DNA from: Escherichia coli
GTDB taxonomy: Bacteria > Pseudomonadota > Gammaproteobacteria > Enterobacterales > Enterobacteriaceae
Direction: 5' to 3' (one strand)
Length of the DNA: 64,000 bases
NCBI RefSeq assembly: GCF_048403405.1
Contig: NZ_CP183129.1
Shown here: positions 10,181-63,974 of the stretch, in pieces
How the letters are laid out: the number at the start of each line of letters is the position of its first letter
How positions within the stretch are numbered: the first letter of the stretch is position 1
Position numbers and translations under genes: made by a program
The notes under the pieces: generated by a model
Databases searched by the model: none
The model's input: the letters and a program-made list of their open reading frames with translations, nothing else
Told to the model about the DNA's origin: nothing

Positions 10181-10204
10181 AAAAAAACCTGCTGGTGAGG
10201 CAGG
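10181..10204 (-). terminator. rho-independent terminator of the OrzO-like sRNA
   Basis: Hairpin cctgc-tggtgag-gcagg (10188-10204) flanked on the plus strand by aaaaaaa (10181-10187), i.e. a 7-U tract after the hairpin on the minus strand. Confidence 0.65.
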
Positions 10205-10263
10205 TTCTTTTATTTACTATTTTCAGGCCCAACACCGCAGCCTGTGCAACATCGTGTTCCAAC
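10181..10263 (-). ncRNA. orzO: OrzO-like antisense sRNA (type I antitoxin), divergent from the zorO-like toxin gene
   Basis: Minus-strand promoter TTGCAA (10293-10298), 17-nt spacer, TATAAT (10270-10275); roughly 85-nt transcript ending at the terminator. Its 5' region is the reverse complement (19/20) of a leader segment of the downstream toxin mRNA. Confidence 0.6.
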
Positions 10264-17600: not shown

Positions 17601-18462
17601 GAGACTCTTCCGCCAGTGATAAATGTTTACGTAGGCGTAATTCAAAGCTGGAATATTGCTGCAAATAATCAGGTGAAATGCCAGACGACAGGAAAACAAT
17701 ATTATTGTTGACATAATCCCATTCAATAGATATTTGTTGAAGATGTATTATTACATCAGTAGCATATTCCAGACCGCCTTCCTGAATAATCTGATCCATA
17801 ACATCCGCACGCTCTTTATATCTCGTGCAGTGCAGTTCAAGTGCCGCGAGTACAGCCATTACCGGTGATGGTAATTTTGTCGTTTTCGGGCTGTTAATCA
17901 GATCGATCGCCTGAGCGATGAAGTTTTGCCACTCTAAAGTACAGGCGCTGAAGTCAAATGTAGCTGTTTTGTTATCCCGTTGCGACACGCCACAGGCTAA
18001 GCGACGTAACTGGGTTAATTTATCTACAGGTGTAACAGGATCTCCGGGAAAGCGGCGATGGCTTAAGGTGGTGGGTACGACTTCAAGCGGAAAAACGACA
18101 GCAATATCTTTTGCCAGCCACGGTAAAATAACGTCTGTATTTTTGTCAGCCACGTAGAATTCTGGTGTAACTGAGGGCTGTTCCTGAATGATGGTAGAAA
18201 AGTCAGATAATTCGAGAGATTTCGTTACCGTTCGAGTATGTTTCGATGTAGCATTCTCCGCATGTTCCACATACCCCTTTTTCGTTTTCTCCGCAATCAG
18301 CTTGAGTTCCGCTTTTTCCGCCGCCGCAGCATCTGCAAAGCTTTTTACCTGACTTTGCCCGTTGGTGCCGACTTTGCCCCAACTGATATTCAGTTCGTTT
18401 CCCTGCTGCTCCACCGCCCAGAATTTATGTGATTTTTCGTCCTGATAAATATAGGTTTTCAT
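14668..18462 (-). CDS. MolR-like giant protein, N-terminal WGR domain plus DUF4132 (1264 aa)
   Basis: N-terminus MKTYIYQDEKSHKFWAVEQQGNELNISWGKVGTNGQ (WGR signature); C-terminal DUF4132-like region; 9-nt gap to yehI. Confidence 0.85.
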   Translation of the reverse strand: MKTYIYQDEKSHKFWAVEQQGNELNISWGKVGTNGQSQVKSFADAAAAEKAELKLIAEKTKKGYVEHAENATSKHTRTVTKSLELSDFSTIIQEQPSVTPEFYVADKNTDVILPWLAKDIAVVFPLEVVPTTLSHRRFPGDPVTPVDKLTQLRRLACGVSQRDNKTATFDFSACTLEWQNFIAQAIDLINSPKTTKLPSPVMAVLAALELHCTRYKERADVMDQIIQEGGLEYATDVIIHLQQISIEWDYVNNNIVFLSSGISPDYLQQYSSFELRLRKHLSLAEESLWQKCAQKLIAAVPHIPEWRQPLIALLLPEKPEIAHEIAQRLLGQKKLPSLEWLKIVATDEHILASLEKYHEPYAIFDDYYCGAIWSATVLQEQGVAALPRFAPYVASDYCADVLRHINHPFALTLLIRVAGHTKRCHDRMTKACAAFPHAALAALAELLVQKEENSWRIMLMTMLISQPTLAEQVIPWLSTPAVAVLKSCQQQLTQPSNHASADLLPAIVVSPPWLSKKKKSPIPVLDLAPLGIEPISYLTEEISNQLLAKYIWYSKHITVSHEESTANLLARMGFQRRIAGTYIKAPEAVVEAWLNEDYSTLISEFKVFHSPTGHYWHLGILTTLPLEKAVRAWNALTLSPHTDTEYAMLHFGLKGLPGLVNSLARYPQEALPITNYFAASELAPAVARAFNKLKTLRQDARTWLLKYPEHAITGLLSAALGKAGEAQDNARAALRMLTENGHQPLLQEIARRYNQPEVTDAVNAMLALDPLDNHPTKIPTLPAFYQPSIWTRPVLKANAQSLPDSALQHLGEMLRFHQEEALYPGLLQVKDACTADSLAEFAWDLFTAWQTAGAPSKESWAFTALGVLGNDDTARKLTPLIRAWPGESQHKRATVGLDILAAISSDIALMQLNGIAQKLKFKALQERAKEKIADIAESRELTVAELEDRLAPALGLDDNGSLLLDFGPRQFTVSFDETLKPFVRDVSGSRLKDLPKPNKSDDESQANDAVNRYKLLKKDARTVAAQQVARLESAMCLRRRWSPENFQLFLVEHPLVRHLTRRLIWGVYSAENQLQACFRVAEDNSYSTADDDLFTLQEGDISVGIPHVLEISPTDAVAFGQLFADYELLPPFRQLERNSYALTEAERNASELTRWAGRKCPSGRVMGLANKGWIKGEPQDGGWIGWMIKPLGRWSLIMEIDEGFAVGMSPADLSAEQVLSKLWLWEGKAESYGWGSNSTQEAQFSVLDDITASELINDIEALFE

Positions 18463-21400: not shown

Positions 21401-22272
21401 ATATCCGGGCGTTCAGGGAGCAGTAACGCCGCAAAAGGTTGCCGTGCTGGGGATAGCGAGGGAATAGCAGCGAGAACTTTATCTACACAGCGTTGCCACT
21501 CATCTTCTGAAGCGAGTGAAAGATGATGACATAGACGTTGATGCCAGTTCGGTAGTGATTCTGCTTTGAGATCAGGGGGAATAATGGTGGTGACGTCGGC
21601 TTTTACTGGTTTATATTTGAGTTGAAGAGCGAGAAGGGCGATTTCAACGGTAGTTTCCAGACCACAGCGAATGACTAAGTCATCGACCAGTTCATCTGTA
21701 GAGTAAGAGTTCCATAAATTCCAGAGCAATGCCGCATCAGATTGTATACTTCCTGTTTGTTGATTATTCAGAATTCGCCTTTGTAACTCGGCAAACGCCA
21801 GCTGCCAGTTTTCAGGATAAGAGCGGTAATTATTGTCGGGGTCATATGCCCTGGTGTTATTCGCGATGCGCTTCCATATTTGGCCATCTTTGTACAGATA
21901 ATTGATCTCTCTGGGGCGAGAGCGATGAGGAAAAGCAAATCGATTAATATCGCCAGTTACCGGAATGACTGCATCATCAGCCACCCATGGGCGTTTGTTT
22001 TTACTCTCAGGGGAGGTTTCAACTTCAGGAGTGGCTTTGGTGATGGGGGGGATATGCACGTTTGCTAAAGCATTTTCCACATAGCCTTTTTTCGTTTTCT
22101 CTGCGATCAGCTTAAGCTCCGCTTTTGCCGCTGCCGCAGCATCCGCAAAACTTTTTACCTGGTTTTGCCCTTTGGTGCCAACTTTTCCCCAACAGATATG
22201 CAACTCGTTTCCCTGTTGCTCCACCGCCCAGAATTTATGTGATTTTTCGTCCTGAAAGATAAAGTGCCTCAT
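18475..22272 (-). CDS. MolR-like giant protein, N-terminal WGR domain plus DUF4132 (1265 aa), second paralog
   Basis: N-terminus MRHFIFQDEKSHKFWAVEQQGNELHICWGKVGTKGQ, near-identical to the adjacent paralog over about 60 aa; conserved C-terminal block; 12-nt gap to the next gene. Confidence 0.85.
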   Translation of the reverse strand: MRHFIFQDEKSHKFWAVEQQGNELHICWGKVGTKGQNQVKSFADAAAAAKAELKLIAEKTKKGYVENALANVHIPPITKATPEVETSPESKNKRPWVADDAVIPVTGDINRFAFPHRSRPREINYLYKDGQIWKRIANNTRAYDPDNNYRSYPENWQLAFAELQRRILNNQQTGSIQSDAALLWNLWNSYSTDELVDDLVIRCGLETTVEIALLALQLKYKPVKADVTTIIPPDLKAESLPNWHQRLCHHLSLASEDEWQRCVDKVLAAIPSLSPARQPFAALLLPERPDIANAMALRYADQNVPAMTWLRLVVTDDAALTTAEKYDFPPLYHDFRAYLAMLLANNGVRGVSRILLEFTEEHSDNPTYLFERISETEDLVKWLWKTNHPDAIQILILGVIGKKKHLEYLSKACQKHPAAALAAYATLLAIHEDAQWRKALVKLITATPDLVTDVIPWVNAKAAGILSECRTQLVAEECEYATADMLPELFVAPPWVINKKTNVIPVFDLPVLPIPAVTDITPGITELISHTDISRFSEIAQYQSSQQTLFTDLPLIEKESWETSFIPFTPEQQILWQLGFNEWLHCEDDLHEKKYIPQSAVDALLRFDFPALKAEFAKYHNNANKSWNLSALCYLPGQQAISFLNQIIIEERYSGEKEILAVFGSTAIPAFMTCLQRDHQRLWIFTLFIGASELALPMAQRLQKKMAYKDAINWLANNPRHAAAGLLPLALGKPCQNREYARQAFRLLVKLNQRETIEEIGRRYNQPDVLAALATLFDSDPLEEYPAKIAPLPGFYQFTLWRRPRLKSNNLPLPDDAMRHLGTMLSFPRDITSYAGLATIKETFTHESLADFGWDLYTAWTEAGAPAKENWAFTSLGILGNDDTARKLTPLIRAWPGESQHKRAVYGLDVLADIGSDVALMLLNGIARKIKFKALQEHAREKINIVAENRGLTMAELEDRLAPDLGLDNSGSLILDFGPRQFTVGFDETLKPVVHDANGKVLKDLPKPNQSDDQTLATDSVNLFKQLKKDVHAIASQQIDRLEQDMCQRRRWTAEQFRLFLVEHPLVRHLTRRVLWGVYTEENTLIACFRVAEDSTYSDAQDELFTLPAGNIGIPHVLEISPESATAFGQIYADYEKLPPFRQLDRGYYHLTDNERDTHELIRWQGRLCQAGRIVGLERRGWQRLEESGSVYAMRKSTPYGALELETEHFSLIYGETGYSDLLPVESVKITSPGERYSTQPSLTFSALDAITASELINDIESLFD

Positions 22273-22403: not shown

Positions 22404-22412
22404 GAAAGGAGA

Positions 22413-24446
22413 TTATTTCACCTGATGACCCGGTTTAGCACCGGCATCCGGGCTTAGCAGGAAAATATCTTTCCCGCCAGGACCGGCAGCCATCACCATG
22501 CCTTCGGAGATACCGAAGCGCATTTTACGTGGTGCCAGGTTAGCCACCATAATGGTATGACGACCAATCAGTGCCTGCGGATCCGGGTAAGCAGAACGAA
22601 TGCCGGAGAAGACATTGCGCTTTTCACCGCCGAGATCCAGCGTCAGGCGCAGCAGTTTGTCAGAACCTTCAACAAACTCTGCGTTTTCGATCAACGCCAC
22701 GCGCAGGTCAACTTTGGCGAAGTCGTCAAAGGTGATGGTTTCCTGAATCGGATCATCTGCCAGTGGGCCAGTTACTGGCGTGGCAGCTGCTTTCACTTCT
22801 TCTTTAGACGCTTCCACCAGTGCTTCAACCTGCTTCATGTCAATACGGTTATACAGCGCCTTGAACGGATTCACTTTGTGGCCCAGCAGCGGTTGCTGGA
22901 TACCATGCCAGGTCAGTTCTGTATTGAGGAATGCTTCTGCACGCTCGGTCAGTTTCGGCAGTACCGGCTTCAGGTAAGTCATCAGCACGCGGAACAGGTT
23001 TATGCCCATCGAGCAAATTGCCTGCAGGTCGGCATCGCGTCCTTCCTGTTTCGCCACCACCCACGGAGCCTGTTCATCGACATAACGGTTAGCCAGATCT
23101 GCCAGCGCCATGATTTCGCGGATCGCTTTACCAAATTCGCGGCTTTCCCACGCTTCACCAATCACTTCAGCGGCATCCGTGAAGGTTTTGTACAGTTGCG
23201 GGTCAGCCAGTTCGCTTGCCAGCACACCGTCAAAACGCTTGTTGATAAAGCCCGCGTTACGGGAGGCCAGGTTAACCACTTTATTCACGATATCGGCATT
23301 CACACGCTGAACGAAATCTTCCAGGTTGAGATCGATATCATCAATGCGCGAAGAAAGTTTCGCAGTGTAGTAGTAACGCAGGCTGTCGGCGTCAAAATGA
23401 TTCAGCCAGGTGCTGGCTTTAATAAAGGTGCCGCGAGACTTGGACATCTTCGCGCCGTTCACCGTCACATAGCCATGAACAAACAGGTTAGTCGGCTTGC
23501 GGAAGTTGCTGCCTTCCAGCATGGCAGGCCAGAACAGGCTGTGGAAGTAAACGATATCTTTACCGATGAAGTGGTACAGCTCGGCGGTGGAATCTTTCTT
23601 CCAGTATTCATCGAAGCTGGTGGTGTCGCCGCGTTTGTCGCACAGATTCTTGAAGGAACCCATGTAGCCAATCGGCGCGTCCAGCCAGACGTAGAAATAT
23701 TTGCCCGGTGCGTTCGGAATTTCAAAACCGAAGTACGGCGCATCGCGGGAGATATCCCACTGTTGCAGGCCGGATTCAAACCACTCCTGCATTTTGTTTG
23801 CCACCTGCTCCTGCAACGCACCGCTGCGGGTCCATGCCTGCAACATTTCGCTGAAAGAGGGCAGATCAAAGAAGAAGTGTTCGGAATCACGCATTACCGG
23901 CGTAGCGCCAGAAACCACCGATTTCGGCTCGATCAGTTCAGTCGGGCTGTAGGTCGCGCCGCAGACTTCGCAGTTATCGCCGTATTGATCCGGGGATTTA
24001 CATTTCGGGCAGGTGCCTTTTACAAAACGGTCCGGCAGGAACATGCCTTTTTCCGGATCGTAAAGCTGAGAGATGGTGCGGTTTTTAATAAAACCGTTCT
24101 CTTTCAGGCGAGAATAAATAAGTTCTGACAACTGGCGGTTCTCTTCGCTGTGCGTCGAGTGATAGTTGTCGTAGCTGATGTTAAAGCCTGCGAAATCAGT
24201 CTGATGCTCCTGACTCATTTCGCCAATCATCTGCTCCGGAGTGATACCAAGCTGCTGAGCTTTCAGCATGATCGGTGTGCCGTGGGCATCGTCGGCGCAG
24301 ATGAAGTTGACCTCGTGGCCGCGCATTCGCTGGTAACGGACCCAGACATCAGCCTGGATGTGCTCCAGCATATGGCCGAGGTGGATTGAGCCGTTAGCGT
24401 ACGGCAGTGCGCACGTCACCAGAATTTTCTTCGCGACTTGAGTCAT
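22413..24446 (-). CDS. metG: methionyl-tRNA synthetase
   Basis: ORF trimmed to the ATG at 24446 ([27 protein letters not shown], 677 aa). Class I synthetase HIGH-type motif, KMSKS, zinc knuckle CPKC..CEVC, C-terminal tRNA-binding region. Confidence 0.95.
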
Positions 24447-24577
24447 AGTAGGCATTACTTCTTAATAGTGAAAAGGGGTTAGATAGTACCAAATGGGAAA
24501 ATGTTAAGTAAGTACTTCTCTATATTCTTCAGGTAAACTATCAGCTGATGGTTTATCTATACAAAAAAGGAGTCGGG

Positions 24578-25687
24578 ATGAACGAACAATCCCAGGCCAA
24601 ATCACCAGAAGCCTTGCGCGCAATGGTCGCCGGGACACTGGCCAATTTTCAGCACCCAACCCTGAAGCATAACCTCACCACGCTGAAAGCGTTGCACCAT
24701 GTCGCCTGGATGGACGACACGTTGCATGTGGAACTGGTTATGCCATTCGTCTGGCATAGCGCGTTCGAAGAGTTAAAAGAGCAATGTAGCGCCGAACTGC
24801 TGCGCATCACCGGGGCGAAAGCTATCGACTGGAAACTGTCGCACAATATCGCCACCTTAAAACGCGTGAAGAATCAGCCGGGAATTAACGGCGTGAAGAA
24901 CATCATTGCGGTCAGCTCCGGTAAAGGCGGCGTGGGTAAATCCTCCACGGCGGTAAACCTGGCGCTGGCACTGGCGGCGGAAGGGGCGAAAGTCGGCATT
25001 CTGGACGCCGATATCTACGGCCCATCAATACCCACCATGCTGGGTGCAGAAAATCAGCGTCCAACTTCGCCGGACGGTACCCATATGGCACCGATTATGT
25101 CTCATGGACTGGCAACCAATTCAATTGGTTATCTGGTCACTGACGACAATGCGATGGTGTGGCGTGGTCCGATGGCGAGCAAGGCGTTAATGCAGATGTT
25201 GCAGGAAACCTTGTGGCCGGATCTCGACTATCTGGTGCTTGATATGCCGCCAGGCACCGGTGACATTCAATTGACACTGGCACAAAACATACCAGTAACT
25301 GGCGCGGTAGTGGTCACCACTCCGCAGGACATTGCGTTGATCGATGCGAAAAAAGGCATTGTGATGTTCGAGAAAGTCGAGGTTCCGGTGCTCGGTATTG
25401 TCGAGAACATGAGTGTGCATATTTGCAGTAACTGTGGTCACCATGAACCGATTTTCGGTACCGGTGGTGCAGAGAAACTGGCCGAGAAATATCACACGCA
25501 GTTGCTGGGGCAGATGCCGTTACACATCTCCTTACGTGAAGATCTCGATAAAGGCACGCCAACGGTTATCAGCCGTCCGGAGAGCGAATTTACCGCTATC
25601 TACCGCCAGCTGGCTGACCGCGTTGCAGCCCAGCTTTATTGGCAGGGAGAAGTCATTCCTGGCGAGATTTCCTTCCGCGCGGTCTAA
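24578..25687 (+). CDS. apbC: Fe-S cluster carrier ATPase ApbC/Mrp
   Basis: ORF 24548..25687 trimmed to the ATG at 24578 with AAGGAG SD (369 aa). P-loop SGKGGVGKSS and CxxC (CSNCGHH). Confidence 0.95.
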   Translation: MNEQSQAKSPEALRAMVAGTLANFQHPTLKHNLTTLKALHHVAWMDDTLHVELVMPFVWHSAFEELKEQCSAELLRITGAKAIDWKLSHNIATLKRVKNQPGINGVKNIIAVSSGKGGVGKSSTAVNLALALAAEGAKVGILDADIYGPSIPTMLGAENQRPTSPDGTHMAPIMSHGLATNSIGYLVTDDNAMVWRGPMASKALMQMLQETLWPDLDYLVLDMPPGTGDIQLTLAQNIPVTGAVVVTTPQDIALIDAKKGIVMFEKVEVPVLGIVENMSVHICSNCGHHEPIFGTGGAEKLAEKYHTQLLGQMPLHISLREDLDKGTPTVISRPESEFTAIYRQLADRVAAQLYWQGEVIPGEISFRAV

Positions 25688-41262: not shown

Positions 41263-41300
41263 CCCGTATGACGGAAAAGGCGTTTACGTCGCATCCGGCA
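41263..41300. repeat. REP-like palindromic element
   Basis: ccccgtatgacggaaaaggcgtttacgtcgcatccggca, which resembles the reverse complement of the REP consensus (GCCGGATGCG...). Confidence 0.45.
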
Positions 41301-41323
41301 TAAAAACACGCGCACTTTGCTAC

Positions 41324-41351
41324 GGCTTCCCTATCGGGAGGCCGTTTTTTT
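41324..41351 (+). terminator. fbaB rho-independent terminator
   Basis: cggcttccc-tatc-gggaggccg hairpin followed by tttttt. Confidence 0.75.
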
Positions 41352-41411
41352 GCCTGTCATTCTGATTAATTTTCGAATTGTCGTTTTTGTGATCATTATC
41401 TCGACATTTGA

Positions 41412-43611
<2,200 letters not shown>

Positions 43612-43620
43612 GGACGGTAT

Positions 43621-44073
43621 ATGACTAACCTGTTTGTTCGTAGCGGAATTTCTTTTGTCGATCGTAGCGAAGTTTTAACCCATATCGGTAATGAGATGCT
43701 CGCGAAAGGTGTGGTTCATGATACCTGGCCACAGGCATTAATTGCCAGAGAAGCAGAATTCCCTACCGGGATAATGCTTGAGCAGCACGCCATTGCAATA
43801 CCGCATTGTGAGGCGATTCATGCTAAGTCGTCAGCCATTTATCTGTTAAGGCCAACAAATAAAGTTCATTTTCAGCAAGCGGATGATGATAACGACGTGG
43901 CGGTATCGTTGGTTATTGCGTTAATTGTGGAAAATCCGCAGCAGCAATTGAAACTTTTACGCTGTTTATTTGGCAAGTTACAACAGCCCGATATCGTCGA
44001 GACACTAATCACTCTTCCTGAAACCCAGTTAAAGGAATACTTCACAAAGTATGTTTTAGATTCAGACGAATAA
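43621..44073 (+). CDS. gatA: PTS galactitol-specific EIIA
   Basis: 150 aa; operon position. Confidence 0.9.
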   Translation: MTNLFVRSGISFVDRSEVLTHIGNEMLAKGVVHDTWPQALIAREAEFPTGIMLEQHAIAIPHCEAIHAKSSAIYLLRPTNKVHFQQADDDNDVAVSLVIALIVENPQQQLKLLRCLFGKLQQPDIVETLITLPETQLKEYFTKYVLDSDE

Positions 44074-44103
44074 ATCCCTCTGTAACAATAAAAAGGACTA
44101 TTT

Positions 44104-44388
44104 ATGAAACGCAAGATTATTGTCGCTTGCGGAGGCGCGGTTGCGACCTCTACGATGGCGGCGGAAGAAATTAAAGAGTTGTGTCAGAGTCATAATATTC
44201 CTGTTGAATTAATCCAGTGTCGGGTTAATGAAATAGAAACCTATATGGATGGTGTGCATTTGATATGTACTACCGCCAAAGTTGACCGTAGTTTTGACGA
44301 TATTCCGTTAGTTCACGGCATGCCTTTTGTTTCTGGTGTCGGTATCGAAGCATTACAAAATAAAATTCTGACTATCTTACAGGGGTGA
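44104..44388 (+). CDS. gatB: PTS galactitol-specific EIIB
   Basis: 94 aa; N-terminal Cys (IVACGGAV) typical of EIIB. Confidence 0.9.
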
Positions 44389-44391
44389 CCT

Positions 44392-45747
44392 ATGTTTTCA
44401 GAAGTCATGCGTTATATTCTCGACCTCGGCCCTACAGTGATGCTGCCGGTTGTCATCATTATTTTTTCTAAAATATTAGGCATGAAGGCAGGCGATTGCT
44501 TTAAAGCGGGTCTGCATATCGGGATTGGCTTTGTTGGCATTGGCCTTGTGATTGGCTTAATGCTGGATTCCATTGGTCCGGCGGCGAAAGCGATGGCGGA
44601 AAATTTCGACCTGAATCTGCATGTGGTCGATGTCGGCTGGCCGGGCTCTTCACCAATGACCTGGGCGTCGCAAATTGCGCTGGTGGCGATTCCGATTGCG
44701 ATTCTGGTTAACGTGGCGATGTTACTGACCCGTATGACGCGGGTGGTAAATGTTGATATCTGGAATATCTGGCATATGACCTTCACCGGCGCGTTGCTGC
44801 ATCTGGCAACCGGTTCATGGATGATAGGGATGGCGGGTGTGGTAATTCACGCGGCGTTTGTTTATAAGCTCGGCGACTGGTTTGCCCGCGATACCCGAAA
44901 TTTCTTTGAGCTGGAAGGCATTGCTATTCCGCACGGTACGTCGGCGTATCTGGGGCCGATTGCGGTGCTGGTCGATGCTATCATTGAGAAAATCCCAGGC
45001 GTTAACCGAATTAAATTTAGTGCCGATGATATTCAGCGCAAGTTTGGCCCATTTGGCGAACCTGTCACCGTGGGTTTTGTGATGGGGCTGATTATCGGCA
45101 TCCTCGCGGGTTACGATGTCAAAGGTGTATTGCAGCTGGCGGTAAAAACGGCAGCAGTTATGCTGTTGATGCCACGGGTGATTAAACCCATCATGGATGG
45201 TTTAACGCCTATCGCTAAGCAGGCCCGTAGTCGTTTACAGGCGAAGTTCGGCGGTCAGGAGTTCCTGATTGGCCTTGATCCGGCGTTGCTGCTGGGGCAT
45301 ACGGCGGTGGTATCGGCAAGCCTGATTTTTATCCCGCTCACCATTTTAATTGCTGTTTGTGTTCCGGGTAATCAGGTACTGCCGTTTGGCGACCTTGCCA
45401 CCATCGGTTTCTTTGTGGCGATGGCGGTCGCCGTGCATCGTGGAAATCTGTTCCGCACCTTAATCTCGGGTGTCATCATTATGAGCATCACCCTGTGGAT
45501 CGCGACGCAAACTATTGGTTTGCACACCCAACTGGCGGCTAACGCTGGGGCGTTAAAAGCCGGAGGCATGGTGGCATCAATGGATCAGGGCGGTTCTCCC
45601 ATTACCTGGTTACTGATTCAGGTTTTCTCCCCGCAAAATATTCCCGGTTTCATTATTATCGGTGCCATTTATCTTACCGGTATTTTCATGACCTGGCGTA
45701 GAGCGCGTGGTTTTATTAAACAAGAGAAAGCCGTTCTCGCAGAATAA
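44392..45747 (+). CDS. gatC: PTS galactitol-specific EIIC
   Basis: 451 aa; polytopic membrane protein. Confidence 0.9.
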   Translation: MFSEVMRYILDLGPTVMLPVVIIIFSKILGMKAGDCFKAGLHIGIGFVGIGLVIGLMLDSIGPAAKAMAENFDLNLHVVDVGWPGSSPMTWASQIALVAIPIAILVNVAMLLTRMTRVVNVDIWNIWHMTFTGALLHLATGSWMIGMAGVVIHAAFVYKLGDWFARDTRNFFELEGIAIPHGTSAYLGPIAVLVDAIIEKIPGVNRIKFSADDIQRKFGPFGEPVTVGFVMGLIIGILAGYDVKGVLQLAVKTAAVMLLMPRVIKPIMDGLTPIAKQARSRLQAKFGGQEFLIGLDPALLLGHTAVVSASLIFIPLTILIAVCVPGNQVLPFGDLATIGFFVAMAVAVHRGNLFRTLISGVIIMSITLWIATQTIGLHTQLAANAGALKAGGMVASMDQGGSPITWLLIQVFSPQNIPGFIIIGAIYLTGIFMTWRRARGFIKQEKAVLAE

Positions 45748-45794
45748 TTTTTACCTGAGGGGGAGTTTATCCCCCTTAACAATCAGGAGTTTTT

Positions 45795-46835
45795 ATGAAA
45801 TCAGTGGTGAATGATACTGATGGTATCGTGCGCGTTGCAGAAAGCGTCATTCCTGAAATTAAACATCAGGATGAGGTACGGGTAAAAATTGCCAGCTCGG
45901 GCTTATGTGGTTCCGATTTACCCAGGATATTTAAAAATGGTGCACATTATTATCCAATAACGTTAGGCCATGAATTTAGCGGCTATATTGATGCGGTGGG
46001 ATCCGGTGTTGATGATTTACACCCTGGCGATGCGGTTGCCTGTGTGCCGTTATTACCCTGTTTTACTTGTCCAGAGTGTTTGAAAGGGTTTTATTCCCAG
46101 TGCGCAAAATATGATTTTATTGGCTCACGGCGTGATGGTGGGTTTGCCGAATATATTGTCGTTAAGCGGAAAAATGTCTTTGCTCTACCTGCGGATATGC
46201 CTATTGAGGATGGGGCTTTTATTGAGCCGATTACCGTTGGCCTGCATGCTTTTCATTTAGCGCAAGGTTGTGAGAATAAAAACGTTATTATTATTGGTGC
46301 CGGAACCATTGGCCTGCTGGCTATTCAGTGCGCTGTCGCGCTGGGAGCAAAGAGTGTGACGGCTATCGACATTAGCTCAGAAAAACTGGCACTGGCAAAA
46401 TCTTTCGGTGCGATGCAAACATTTAACAGCCTTGAAATGAGCGCGCCGCAAATGCAGGGCGTTTTACGCGAGCTGCGCTTTAATCAGCTTATCCTCGAGA
46501 CGGCTGGCGTCCCGCAAACCGTCGAACTGGCGGTAGAGATTGCCGGGCCTCATGCCCAGCTGGCGCTGGTGGGCACGTTGCATCAGGATTTGCATTTAAC
46601 ATCGGCAACGTTTGGCAAAATATTACGTAAAGAGCTGACGGTTATCGGCAGTTGGATGAACTACTCCAGCCCTTGGCCGGGGCAGGAGTGGGAAACGGCG
46701 AGCCGGTTGCTGACAGAACGTAAGTTAAGCCTGGAGCCATTAATCGCTCACCGTGGAAGCTTTGAAAGCTTCGCCCAGGCGGTGCGTGACATCGCTCGTA
46801 ATGCTATGCCGGGCAAAGTGTTGCTCATTCCCTGA
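45795..46835 (+). CDS. gatD: galactitol-1-phosphate 5-dehydrogenase (Zn-dependent MDR family)
   Basis: 346 aa; GHEFSG zinc-ADH motif; Rossmann GAGTIG. Confidence 0.9.
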   Translation: MKSVVNDTDGIVRVAESVIPEIKHQDEVRVKIASSGLCGSDLPRIFKNGAHYYPITLGHEFSGYIDAVGSGVDDLHPGDAVACVPLLPCFTCPECLKGFYSQCAKYDFIGSRRDGGFAEYIVVKRKNVFALPADMPIEDGAFIEPITVGLHAFHLAQGCENKNVIIIGAGTIGLLAIQCAVALGAKSVTAIDISSEKLALAKSFGAMQTFNSLEMSAPQMQGVLRELRFNQLILETAGVPQTVELAVEIAGPHAQLALVGTLHQDLHLTSATFGKILRKELTVIGSWMNYSSPWPGQEWETASRLLTERKLSLEPLIAHRGSFESFAQAVRDIARNAMPGKVLLIP

Positions 46836-46934
46836 AACCGCGGGCCAGCGTGATGCTGGCCCGGTATTGTGCAAAACAGATCATTCACCAATGGTCCCCC
46901 TTCGTTTACACTAGCCACAATTGAATATGGGTAA

Positions 46935-47714
46935 ATGACGATGAATTCATTCGAGCGAAGGAATAAGATCATCCAATTAGTGAATGAACAGGGAACCGTG
47001 CTTGTTCAGGATCTGGCGGGAGTATTTGCTGCCTCGGAAGCGACAATCCGTGCCGATTTGCGCTTTCTCGAACAAAAAGGCGTAGTTACGCGCTTTCATG
47101 GCGGTGCGGCGAAAATAATGTCCGGTAATAGTGAAACCGAGACTCAGGAAGTTGGGTTTAAAGAGCGATTTCAGCTCGCCAGTGCGCCAAAAAACAGAAT
47201 AGCGCAGGCGGCAGTCAAAATGATCCACGAAGGGATGACCGTTATTCTCGACAGCGGAAGTACCACAATGCTTATCGCCGAAGGTTTAATGACCGCCAAA
47301 AATATCACGGTGATTACCAACAGTCTCCCGGCGGCGTTTGCCCTTTCCGAAAATAAAGACATTACTCTGGTCGTCTGTGGTGGGACCGTCCGCCATAAAA
47401 CACGCTCGATGCATGGTTCCATTGCCGAGCGTTCATTGCAGGATATTAATGCCGATTTAATGTTTGTCGGTGCTGATGGTATTGATGCGGTTAATGGTAT
47501 TACGACCTTTAATGAAGGTTATTCGATTAGCGGGGCAATGGTCACAGCCGCAAATAAAGTGATTGCCGTTCTCGATTCATCGAAATTTAATCGTCGCGGT
47601 TTTAATCAGGTACTGCCAATCGAAAAAATCGACATTATTATTACCGACGATGCTGTGTCAGAGGTGGATAAACTGGCATTGCAGAAGACACGGGTGAAAT
47701 TAATTACGGTGTAG
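46935..47714 (+). CDS. gatR: DeoR-family repressor GatR (intact)
   Basis: 259 aa uninterrupted ORF (alternative ATG at 46941); N-terminal HTH, C-terminal DeoR sugar-binding region. Confidence 0.85.
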   Translation: MTMNSFERRNKIIQLVNEQGTVLVQDLAGVFAASEATIRADLRFLEQKGVVTRFHGGAAKIMSGNSETETQEVGFKERFQLASAPKNRIAQAAVKMIHEGMTVILDSGSTTMLIAEGLMTAKNITVITNSLPAAFALSENKDITLVVCGGTVRHKTRSMHGSIAERSLQDINADLMFVGADGIDAVNGITTFNEGYSISGAMVTAANKVIAVLDSSKFNRRGFNQVLPIEKIDIIITDDAVSEVDKLALQKTRVKLITV

Positions 47715-47795: not shown

Positions 47796-48695
47796 TTAAC
47801 GCAATAATGGACAATCTGGTGGTAATCGACAACGCAACGCCGCCGGAAGTATTTCAATATGGAAGTTTTGCCCACTCAACGGTTCGCCATCAAGATTAAA
47901 AGTGATTTCGTGTGGGGCTTGTATATCAAACCACGACGAAGCGCCTTCGATAATATTCGGGTTATCTTCGTCAGATTTTAAGGTTGATACGAGAGCTGGA
48001 AGAATTTCATCGCCGGTAAAAATGCGCAGTTGCAGCAGGCCATCGTTAATTAACGCGTTCGGGCACAATTGCTGACCGCCACCGGCCTGACGCCCGTTAC
48101 CAATACCAATGACCAGGGCGTCACCTTGCCAGTGAAAGTTTTCACCGCGGATCTCACAACGGTCCGGTTGCAGAGTATCCATGCGCATTAAGCCATGAAT
48201 GATGTAAGAGACGCCACCCAGCGCGGCTTTTAATTTTTCCGGCGTTTCTGTGGTAATACGCGTCCCAAATCCGCCTGTCGCCATATTAATAAAACAGGTT
48301 TGTTTGTTGACCTGCGCCATATCTATCGCAATGGCGTCACCGGCAATTGCCAGTTTCAGCGCCTTATCCAGTGCCTCAGGAATCCTTACACTGGTGGCAA
48401 AATCATTGGCGGTTCCTAATGGCAAAATTCCTAGCGCGGGTATGTCATCCCCCTCACACTGAATCAACGCCGTAGAAACTTCATTAATGGTGCCATCGCC
48501 ACCACCGGCAATCACCGTTGCGACGCTCAACTTCCGGGCCTCCTCTACATATCGTGCGGCATCGCCTTTCTCCCAAGTGACCCGCACATGGATCGTCATT
48601 CCTTCCTCACGCAACAGCATAATTGCTTCGCGCAATGGTAAATTGTCAGTACTTTTGCCATTAAGAATCAGTAAGCTGGCGGGAAATTCTGCCAT
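47796..48695 (-). CDS. yegS: lipid kinase YegS (DAGK catalytic domain family)
   Basis: 299 aa; GGDGT motif of the diacylglycerol-kinase-like family. Confidence 0.9.
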
Positions 48696-49427: not shown

Positions 49428-49584
49428 GAATATTTTTTGGTAAGCGTCAAACATGCGCGTTCTGATTGTGCGTAGCCGGAACCTGTACGAGCACGATGCC
49501 GTTAAGTGAAAGGCATCGTGCTATGAAGGGGGATTCTATCGATGTGGTCAATGGAAGACGGTGACCAGGATACGGCTTATGCAT

Positions 49585-49671
49585 AAAAAATAAGCCCGTG
49601 TAAGGGAGATTACACAGGCTAAGGAGGTGGTTCCTGGTACAGCTAGCATTTTATGGGTTATGTTTTTCAGC
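49585..49671 (-). ncRNA. cyaR: CyaR (RyeE) sRNA
   Basis: Minus-strand sequence matches recalled CyaR (GCUGAAAAACAUAACCCAUAAAAUGCUAGCUGUACCAGGAACCACCUCCUUAGCCUGUGUAAUCUCCCUUACACGGGCUUAUUUUUU): terminator hairpin plus U6, anti-SD-like CCUCCUUA; adjacent to yegQ. Confidence 0.8.
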
Positions 49672-49705
49672 GAAACGGATGATAACCTTAATAAATGCAG
49701 CTGTA

Positions 49706-62984: not shown

Positions 62985-63130
62985 GCTGAAACGGGAAAGC
63001 CCCTCCCGAGGAAGGGGCCTTAAATAAGGAAAGGGTCATGATGAAGCTACTCATCATCGTGGTGCTCTTAGTGATTAGCTACCCAGCATACTAAGACTAC
63101 CAGGGCGGGGGAAACCCCGCTCTACCCTCA
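62985..63130 (-). ncRNA. sibB: Sib-family antisense sRNA, copy 1 (approximate bounds)
   Basis: Candidate minus-strand promoter TTGACA (63160-63165), 17-nt spacer, TACTTT (63137-63142); transcript would cover the whole ibs ORF and SD in antisense. Ends are estimated. Confidence 0.45.
63038..63094 (+). CDS. ibsB: Ibs-family 18-aa hydrophobic toxin (IbsB-like)
   Basis: Not in the ORF track (below its size cut-off). atgatgaagctactc... encodes MMKLLIIVVLLVISYPAY; SD aaggaaaggg upstream. Confidence 0.75.
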   Translation: MMKLLIIVVLLVISYPAY

Positions 63131-63312
63131 CTCCTGAAAGTATGCCTTCACGATAAGATTGTCAATCTGCAGGCTTTGCAGTCTGCGATCCTGCCAGCAA
63201 ATATTCTTTGCGAGACGTTACGCAATAATCACACTGGAAACTATTTTATCCGCAAGTCAGCGATAGACTGCATACAGGGCGAAAGGAGGTAAGCCGACGA
63301 TTTCAGCGGGAC

Positions 63313-63458
63313 GCTGAAACGGGAAAGCCCCTCCCGAGGAAGGGGCCTTAAATAAGGAAAGGGTCATGATGAAGATACTCATCATCGTGGTGCTCTTAGT
63401 GATTAGCTACCCAGCATACTAAGACTACCAGGGCGGGGGAAACCCCGCTCTACCCTCA
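63313..63458 (-). ncRNA. Sib-family antisense sRNA, copy 2 (approximate bounds)
   Basis: Same promoter elements shifted by 328 bp (TTGACA at 63488-63493 on the minus strand). Confidence 0.45.
63366..63422 (+). CDS. Ibs-family 18-aa toxin, second IbsB-like copy
   Basis: MMKILIIVVLLVISYPAY; differs from copy 1 by L4I. Confidence 0.75.
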   Translation: MMKILIIVVLLVISYPAY

Positions 63459-63644
63459 CTCCTGAAAGTATGCCTTCACGATAAGATTGTCAATCCGCAG
63501 GCTTTGCAGTCTGCGATCCTGCCAGCAAATATTCTTTGCGAGTCGTTACGCAATAATCACAGAGGAAACTATTTTGGTCACGCGTTAGCGATAGACTGCA
63601 TTCAGGGCGAAAGGAGGTAAGCCGACGATTTCAGCGGGACGCTG

Positions 63645-63793
63645 AAACGGGAAACCCTCTCCCGGAGAAGAGGGCTTTTAATAAGGAAAGGGTTATGATG
63701 AAGCACGTCATCATACTGGAGATACTCTTAGTGATTAGCTTCCAGGCTTACTAAGAACACCAGGGGGAGGGAGAAACCTCTCCCTAACCCTCA
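63645..63793 (-). ncRNA. sibA: Sib-family antisense sRNA, copy 3 (approximate bounds)
   Basis: TTGACA at 63823-63828 on the minus strand; the -10 region has diverged (TAATTT-like); antisense to the third ibs ORF. Confidence 0.4.
63695..63754 (+). CDS. ibsA: Ibs-family 19-aa toxin (IbsA-like variant)
   Basis: MMKHVIILEILLVISFQAY; same leader context; carries a Glu in the hydrophobic core. Confidence 0.65.
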   Translation: MMKHVIILEILLVISFQAY

Positions 63794-63974
63794 CTCCTGA
63801 AATTATGTCACTCCGCCCTTAGTGTCAATCGACGGCTCTCCGTTCTTGCGAGGCGAATAGCAAAATTTTCTGCGCCGCCGGGCCTAATTCTGAAAGTTTC
63901 TTCGTTTGCTCTTATTTCATTATTGCAATCGGTATGATACCGGGCCTCAATAATTCTCTAAGAAAGGATTTCTT

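Follow-up and report, generated by a model that had tools for sequence, protein, structure and literature searches.

The open reading frame directly behind gatD in the window (the whole 64,000-nucleotide stretch of Escherichia coli DNA analyzed here) very probably represents a wild-type, functional gatR, and the galactitol (gat) operon of this strain would thus be galactitol-inducible, unlike that of MG1655. The expectation of inducible regulation derives from a GatR protein identical to the allele of E. coli HS that restores regulation, from intact gat genes, and from conserved blocks in the gatY promoter. The first-pass annotation of an intact gatR was accurate and correctly interpreted, and what it describes is the wild-type state, already known, of a locus that has been studied in detail. 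The coordinates of the features are collected in Table 1.

Table 1. Features of the gat locus, with positions counted from the first nucleotide of the window.
Feature	Position	Strand	Basis or remark
fbaB terminator	41322-41345		
gat promoter/putative operator region, upstream of gatY	41346..41465	+	Promoter scan, repeats, seven-allele alignment
CRP-like site TGTGA-N6-TCTCG	41388-41403	+	Found by eye; overlaps the -35 element
Predicted -35 element, TCGACA	41401-41406	+	Promoter scan
Predicted -10 element, CATTAT	41425-41430	+	Promoter scan
gatYZABCD structural genes	41466..46835	+	Intact; predicted targets of GatR repression; ORF listing and length comparison
gatD	45795..46835	+	NCBIfam galactitol-1-phosphate 5-dehydrogenase equivalog, 726.6 bits against a cut-off of 550
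gatD-gatR intergenic spacer, 99 bp	46836..46934	+	
G+C-rich strong hairpin, CGGGCCAGC-GTGAT-GCTGGCCCG	46841..46863	+	Just 3' of the gatD stop; RNA fold
gatR maximal ORF	46935..47714	+	259 codons, ATG to TAG; ORF listing and raw sequence
DeoR-type helix-turn-helix (HTH), N-terminal, DNA-binding	46956..47114	+	Residues 8-60 of the 259-aa ORF; Pfam PF08220
DeoRC sensor/oligomerisation domain, C-terminal	47187..47648	+	Residues 85-238; Pfam PF00455
GAC, insertion site of IS3E in K-12	47237..47239	+	Codon 102, start of the sensor domain; uninterrupted in the window
yegS, lipid kinase, bounding the locus downstream	47796..48695	-	NCBIfam YegS, 489 bits against a cut-off of 284; annotation of matching genomes

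An uninterrupted DeoR-family reading frame of 259 codons had been reported after gatD. Its continuity and family were borne out by the ORF listing, the sequence, and the Pfam search, but the length applies to the maximal ORF, as the annotated coding sequence has 257 residues. In the RefSeq/PGAP annotation of the nearest genomes and in the MG1655 record, translation begins at the second in-frame ATG, at 46941. A weak GGGT Shine-Dalgarno-like motif was seen by eye 9 nt before 46941 and 3 nt before 46935, a spacing that favors the later start. Both domains of the family were detected in the product, the HTH (E = 1.3e-16; 60.5 bits against a cut-off of 21) and the DeoRC domain (E = 2.5e-51; profile positions 5-159 of 160). 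The presence of the two together excludes a chance ORF, and the gatR product is a member of the DeoR family of transcriptional repressors. Among solved structures, the only chain with an E-value of 1e-10 or lower was 7l6l_A, the C-terminal domain of the E. coli deoxyribose operon repressor, which aligned with residues 83-254, covering the sensor domain (E = 1.9e-11; 47 bits).

It was noted that the gene order fbaB-gatYZABCD-gatR-yegS is common to all compared E. coli, and that gatR lies directly downstream of gatYZABCD on the same strand, ahead of the convergent yegS. The genes gatY, gatZ, gatA, gatB, gatC, and gatD have the lengths found in TUM14771, HS, and O157, and each carries a single, terminal stop. 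The gatC gene (44392-45747; 451 aa) is intact in the window; the MG1655 record gives pseudogene status to gatC (b2092). Natural inactivation of gat was encountered in the raw-milk-cheese isolate E. coli CFSAN061771, whose gatY has an internal stop and is annotated as a pseudogene. Over its full length, between btsS and the ibs/sib locus that precedes yegL, the window aligns collinearly with the E. coli TUM14771 chromosome (NZ_CP128875.1; 99.8-99.98% identity).

We then compared the locus with that of K-12, where the first-pass annotation had placed an IS disruption of gatR and, with it, constitutive gat expression in MG1655. Both statements were confirmed. In the MG1655 genome (NC_000913.3), gatR (b4498) is a pseudogene joined from two pieces and labeled 'DNA-binding transcriptional repressor GatR, N-terminal fragment', and the element between the pieces is annotated 'insertion sequence:IS3E' (1258 bp, with insE5 and insF5). 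The constitutive expression of gat in MG1655 due to the gatR insertion is stated in three sources (PMC5850726; PMC3045373; bioRxiv 10.64898/2026.01.05.697630). When the window was aligned with the K-12 gatR flanks by BLAST, the alignment stopped at 47239 and restarted at 47237; at the K-12 junctions the IS3 ends are bordered by a duplicated GAC, a 3-bp target-site duplication. The window runs continuously across these positions and thus lacks the MG1655-type disruption. The same IS3E split of gatR is present in NEB5-alpha, a K-12 derivative. According to one source (PMC3045373), MG1655 has the disruption and the K-12 strain NCM3722 lacks it, so the insertion is not found in every K-12 strain. 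The inserted element is called 'IS1' in one sentence of PMC5850726, yet it is IS3E in the genome records.

The claim that no IS sequence occurs anywhere in the window also held, with the collinearity to TUM14771, the IS3 searches, and the plasmid comparison all in agreement. No match to IS3E DNA (blastn) or to InsE/InsF (tblastn) was found in the window, and the PGAP annotation of TUM14771 records no transposase in the collinear region. Three chunks of the window were searched by megablast against 72,556 plasmids and gave 25, 213, and 34 matching records, with no widely shared mobile segment detected by this search. An enterobacterial IS would be expected in far more plasmid records, and the low counts therefore speak against one. 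A hidden IS was considered for the 213 matches of the middle chunk (21001-43000) and was rejected, as the matches are metG/apbC copies on pLF82-like plasmids of about 110 kb. The apbC-metG segment (22412-25680) has counterparts on approximately 200 such E. coli plasmids, typed as non-mobilizable (for example pLF82, NC_011917.1), which carry their own metG and apbC at about 90% identity to the chromosomal genes.

Internal repeats in the window were limited to the sib units and to a short segment common to two DUF4132 paralogues. Three DUF4132 genes lie in tandem in the yehH/molR-yehI region, and two of them share approximately 186 bp at 88.7% identity (18260-18445 and 22070-22255); TUM14771 has three large intact paralogues there. 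Rfam identified three copies of SIB_RNA (Sib antitoxin), all on the minus strand (63023-63165, 63351-63493, and 63680-63828), and the interval from mdtA to yegL therefore holds three ibs/sib units of the type I toxin-antitoxin class. In TUM14771 and HS, two Ibs toxin genes are annotated at this locus, and the extra unit of about 330 bp accounts for the offset alignment at the end of the window. An OrzO-P antitoxin sRNA in the yehK-yehL intergenic region (10181-10256, minus strand; RF02083, 101 bits) points to a zor/orz type I toxin-antitoxin locus. The CyaR sRNA was located at 49588-49673 on the minus strand. The P2-like prophage remnant that lies beside cyaR in K-12 (ogrK, yegZ; 'PR-X') is absent from the window (49577-49673), from TUM14771, and from HS.

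The frequency of intact gatR was assessed with gatR alone as the BLAST query against 5426 complete E. coli genomes, which were classed by BLAST coverage. A match was present in 5109 genomes and absent from 317. The gene was full-length in one place in 4756 of the 5426 (approximately 88%) and split over two places in about 348 records. All four of the two-piece records that were sampled break at query nt 303-305, which is the K-12 junction, and belong to K-12 laboratory derivatives or look-alikes. Some genomes matched a longer query only at its yegS end, suggesting that the gat locus has been lost there. Intact gatR is the wild-type norm and K-12 the exception, and the intact gene is not special to the source strain.

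At the protein level, GatR of the window and K-12 GatR rejoined across IS3E are identical at 259 of 259 residues, and the 22 differences among 780 nt are all synonymous. On these alignments, the window gene is the ortholog of K-12 gatR (b4498). The comparison with HS likewise gave 22 nucleotide and no amino-acid differences, and the same protein (WP_001295426.1) is encoded by HS, TUM14771, and the window. GatR of O157:H7 differs from it by a single residue (E241D). Relative to HS, the gat proteins of the window carry 2 substitutions in GatY, 9 in GatZ, 4 in GatB, 3 in GatC, and 4 in GatD, and only GatR and GatA have none; the lack of GatR substitutions is consistent with purifying selection on the repressor. 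Sousa et al. replaced the gatR pseudogene of MG1655 with HS gatR and found the gat operon regulated again (PMC5850726). Given that the two proteins have the same sequence, the exact protein encoded in the window has been shown elsewhere to be an active repressor. When the MG1655 strain carrying HS gatR was placed in mice, gat-constitutive mutants arose with new IS insertions in gatR (PMC5850726). CRISPRi directed at intact gatR gave a strong de-repression signal in LF82 and CFT073 and none in MG1655 (bioRxiv 10.64898/2026.01.05.697630).

In the proposed mechanism, the HTH of GatR would bind a putative operator within the promoter region of gatY and thereby keep gatYZABCD off. Galactitol entering through the Gat PTS would be phosphorylated and supply a pathway sugar phosphate, and binding of this sugar phosphate by the DeoRC domain would release repression. 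The inducer is most likely galactitol-1-phosphate, by analogy with DeoR-family repressors that sense sugar phosphates. CRP probably adds activation of gatYZABCD, given the CRP-like site in the promoter. In MG1655, with gatR split by IS3E after codon 101, the operon is expressed constitutively.

The predicted promoter elements of gatY are surrounded by direct repeats (TTTGAAAACAAA / TTTGAAATCGAA) and inverted repeats (TGTCGTTT / AAACGACA) that were found by repeat search. These short blocks, namely the CRP-like site, the -35 and -10 elements, and the repeats, are invariant across seven divergent E. coli alleles, the window included. The operator assigned to this region is predicted, and we infer its integrity from these features. 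The fbaB-gatY intergenic region measures 227 bp in the window compared with 307 bp in HS and MG1655. Deletion of a gat operator was considered as the cause and was rejected, as the missing 78 bp are a REP/BIME-like unit that lies ahead of the fbaB terminator, outside the promoter. This unit lies between the fbaB stop and the terminator in MG1655 and HS and is lacking in the window and TUM14771, with the deletion point at 41289-41290.

Three other explanations of the locus were weighed against a functional, inducible gatR. The ORF might encode a different DeoR-family regulator, for example a paralogue of AgaR or SrlR, as the top NCBIfam models were AgaR (232.9 bits) and SrlR (226.3 bits), no GatR-specific model exists in NCBIfam, and the PGAP product name is only the generic 'DeoR/GlpR family DNA-binding transcription regulator'. 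However, both scores fall under their curated cut-offs (260 and 350, respectively), the product is 100% identical to the joined K-12 b4498 fragments annotated as GatR, and the position between gatD and yegS was constant in every genome examined. The name GatR therefore follows from orthology to b4498 and from synteny, which effectively refute the AgaR/SrlR paralogue; we consider such an identity scarcely credible. It is also very improbable that an intact-looking ORF encodes a protein inactivated by a subtle missense change, an explanation with no finding in its favor and already refuted at the sequence level by the absence of any amino-acid difference from the functional HS allele.

The main residual alternative is that gatR is intact but lineage-specific changes, in the gatY promoter/operator or elsewhere, have made gat expression constitutive or non-inducible or have shifted its set-point. 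The region upstream of gatY (41346-41465) is unusually polymorphic, far more so across E. coli than the flanking genes, and the window allele was matched by megablast in only 1325 of the 5426 genomes, and 816 of these matches had 90-95% identity. It differs from K-12 and HS at about 12 positions and by a 2-bp indel. Within the spacer of the CRP-like site, the window has A at 41394 where all six other aligned alleles have G, and the combinations at 41374-41375 and 41445-41446 are absent from those six. In addition, gat-constitutive mutants readily arise in the gut (Sousa et al., PMC5850726). Against altered regulation, every block that is invariant among the seven alleles is kept in the window, and the promoter allele recurs in many independent isolates (179 genomes at 99% identity or more) beside an intact gatR under strict purifying selection. 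A recurrent promoter allele next to a constrained repressor gene is not what one would expect of a repressor without an operator. We therefore regard altered regulation as improbable, and a functional GatR controlling an inducible operon remains the preferred reading.

The spacer between gatD and gatR was found to be conserved to an unusual degree for non-coding DNA, being identical (100%) in the window, MG1655, HS, and O157:H7. Among the 5103 genomes that have it, 3937 (77%) carry the identical spacer and most others are one base off. In contrast, over gatR itself only 20 genomes are at least 99% identical to the window and the typical difference is 1.5-4%; the spacer diverges approximately ten times more slowly than the synonymous sites of gatR. 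Such constraint on non-coding DNA suggests a regulatory element, which could be a gatR promoter and leader, possibly with autoregulation, or a hairpin involved in gat mRNA processing or stability. Presumably the gatYZABCD transcript has its 3' hairpin in the spacer, where the gatR promoter and leader would also lie. The hairpin has no T-run behind it and was not called an intrinsic terminator by the terminator scan, and the promoter scan found no consensus-grade gatR promoter in the spacer. The best candidate by eye, TTCACC-17-TACACT (46884-46912), agrees at only 8 of 12 positions and is not claimed as a promoter. An 8-mer (TCGTTTAC) that occurs both upstream of gatR and, in reverse orientation, in the gatY leader was considered as an operator and set aside, as about 0.3 chance matches are expected between two regions of about 100 bp; K-12 has TCGTTTG at this site. 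A role beyond a simple promoter, such as a GatR autoregulatory operator with an mRNA 3'-end hairpin setting the ratio of gatYZABCD to gatR, or a 3'-UTR-derived small RNA, is rather unlikely, and no such role for the spacer was found in the literature searched.

These results indicate that the galactitol operon of the source strain is in its ancestral, regulated form, as opposed to the laboratory state of K-12; the finding has little significance beyond correct annotation. In the mouse gut the gat locus is under selection, and gat-negative and gat-constitutive mutants sweep (PMC5850726, PMC5094792); a regulated starting state would be a useful background for colonization or evolution experiments. 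K-12 is a poor reference for gat regulation, given the share of complete E. coli genomes with an intact gatR.

Compared with GatR of K-12 (b4498) and HS (WP_001295426.1), the window gene has the same 257 annotated residues, the same neighbors (gatD and yegS), and an identical 99-bp spacer in front of it, and it differs by the synonymous substitutions and by the positions in the gatY promoter described above; the IS3E of MG1655 is absent from it. In E. coli, the N-acetylgalactosamine and glucitol PTS operons are repressed by AgaR and SrlR (GutR), respectively, both of the DeoR family. They share the two-domain architecture and align end to end with the gatR product (AgaR, E = 3.1e-69; SrlR, E = 4.4e-67), but the scores below the equivalog cut-offs and the different operon context mark them as paralogues of GatR. 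DeoR, the founding member of the family, responds to deoxyribose-5-phosphate; the likeness lies in the sensor domain matched by 7l6l, whereas the overall relationship is distant (47 bits) and the effector and targets are others. A passage of PMC7972205 that cites Nolle et al. 2017 states that GatR of Salmonella Typhimurium represses gat promoters and that deletion of its HTH abolishes repression. The Salmonella protein is thus likewise a repressor of gat promoters, but it belongs to a gat cluster of different organization, which includes the tagatose kinase gene STM3254.
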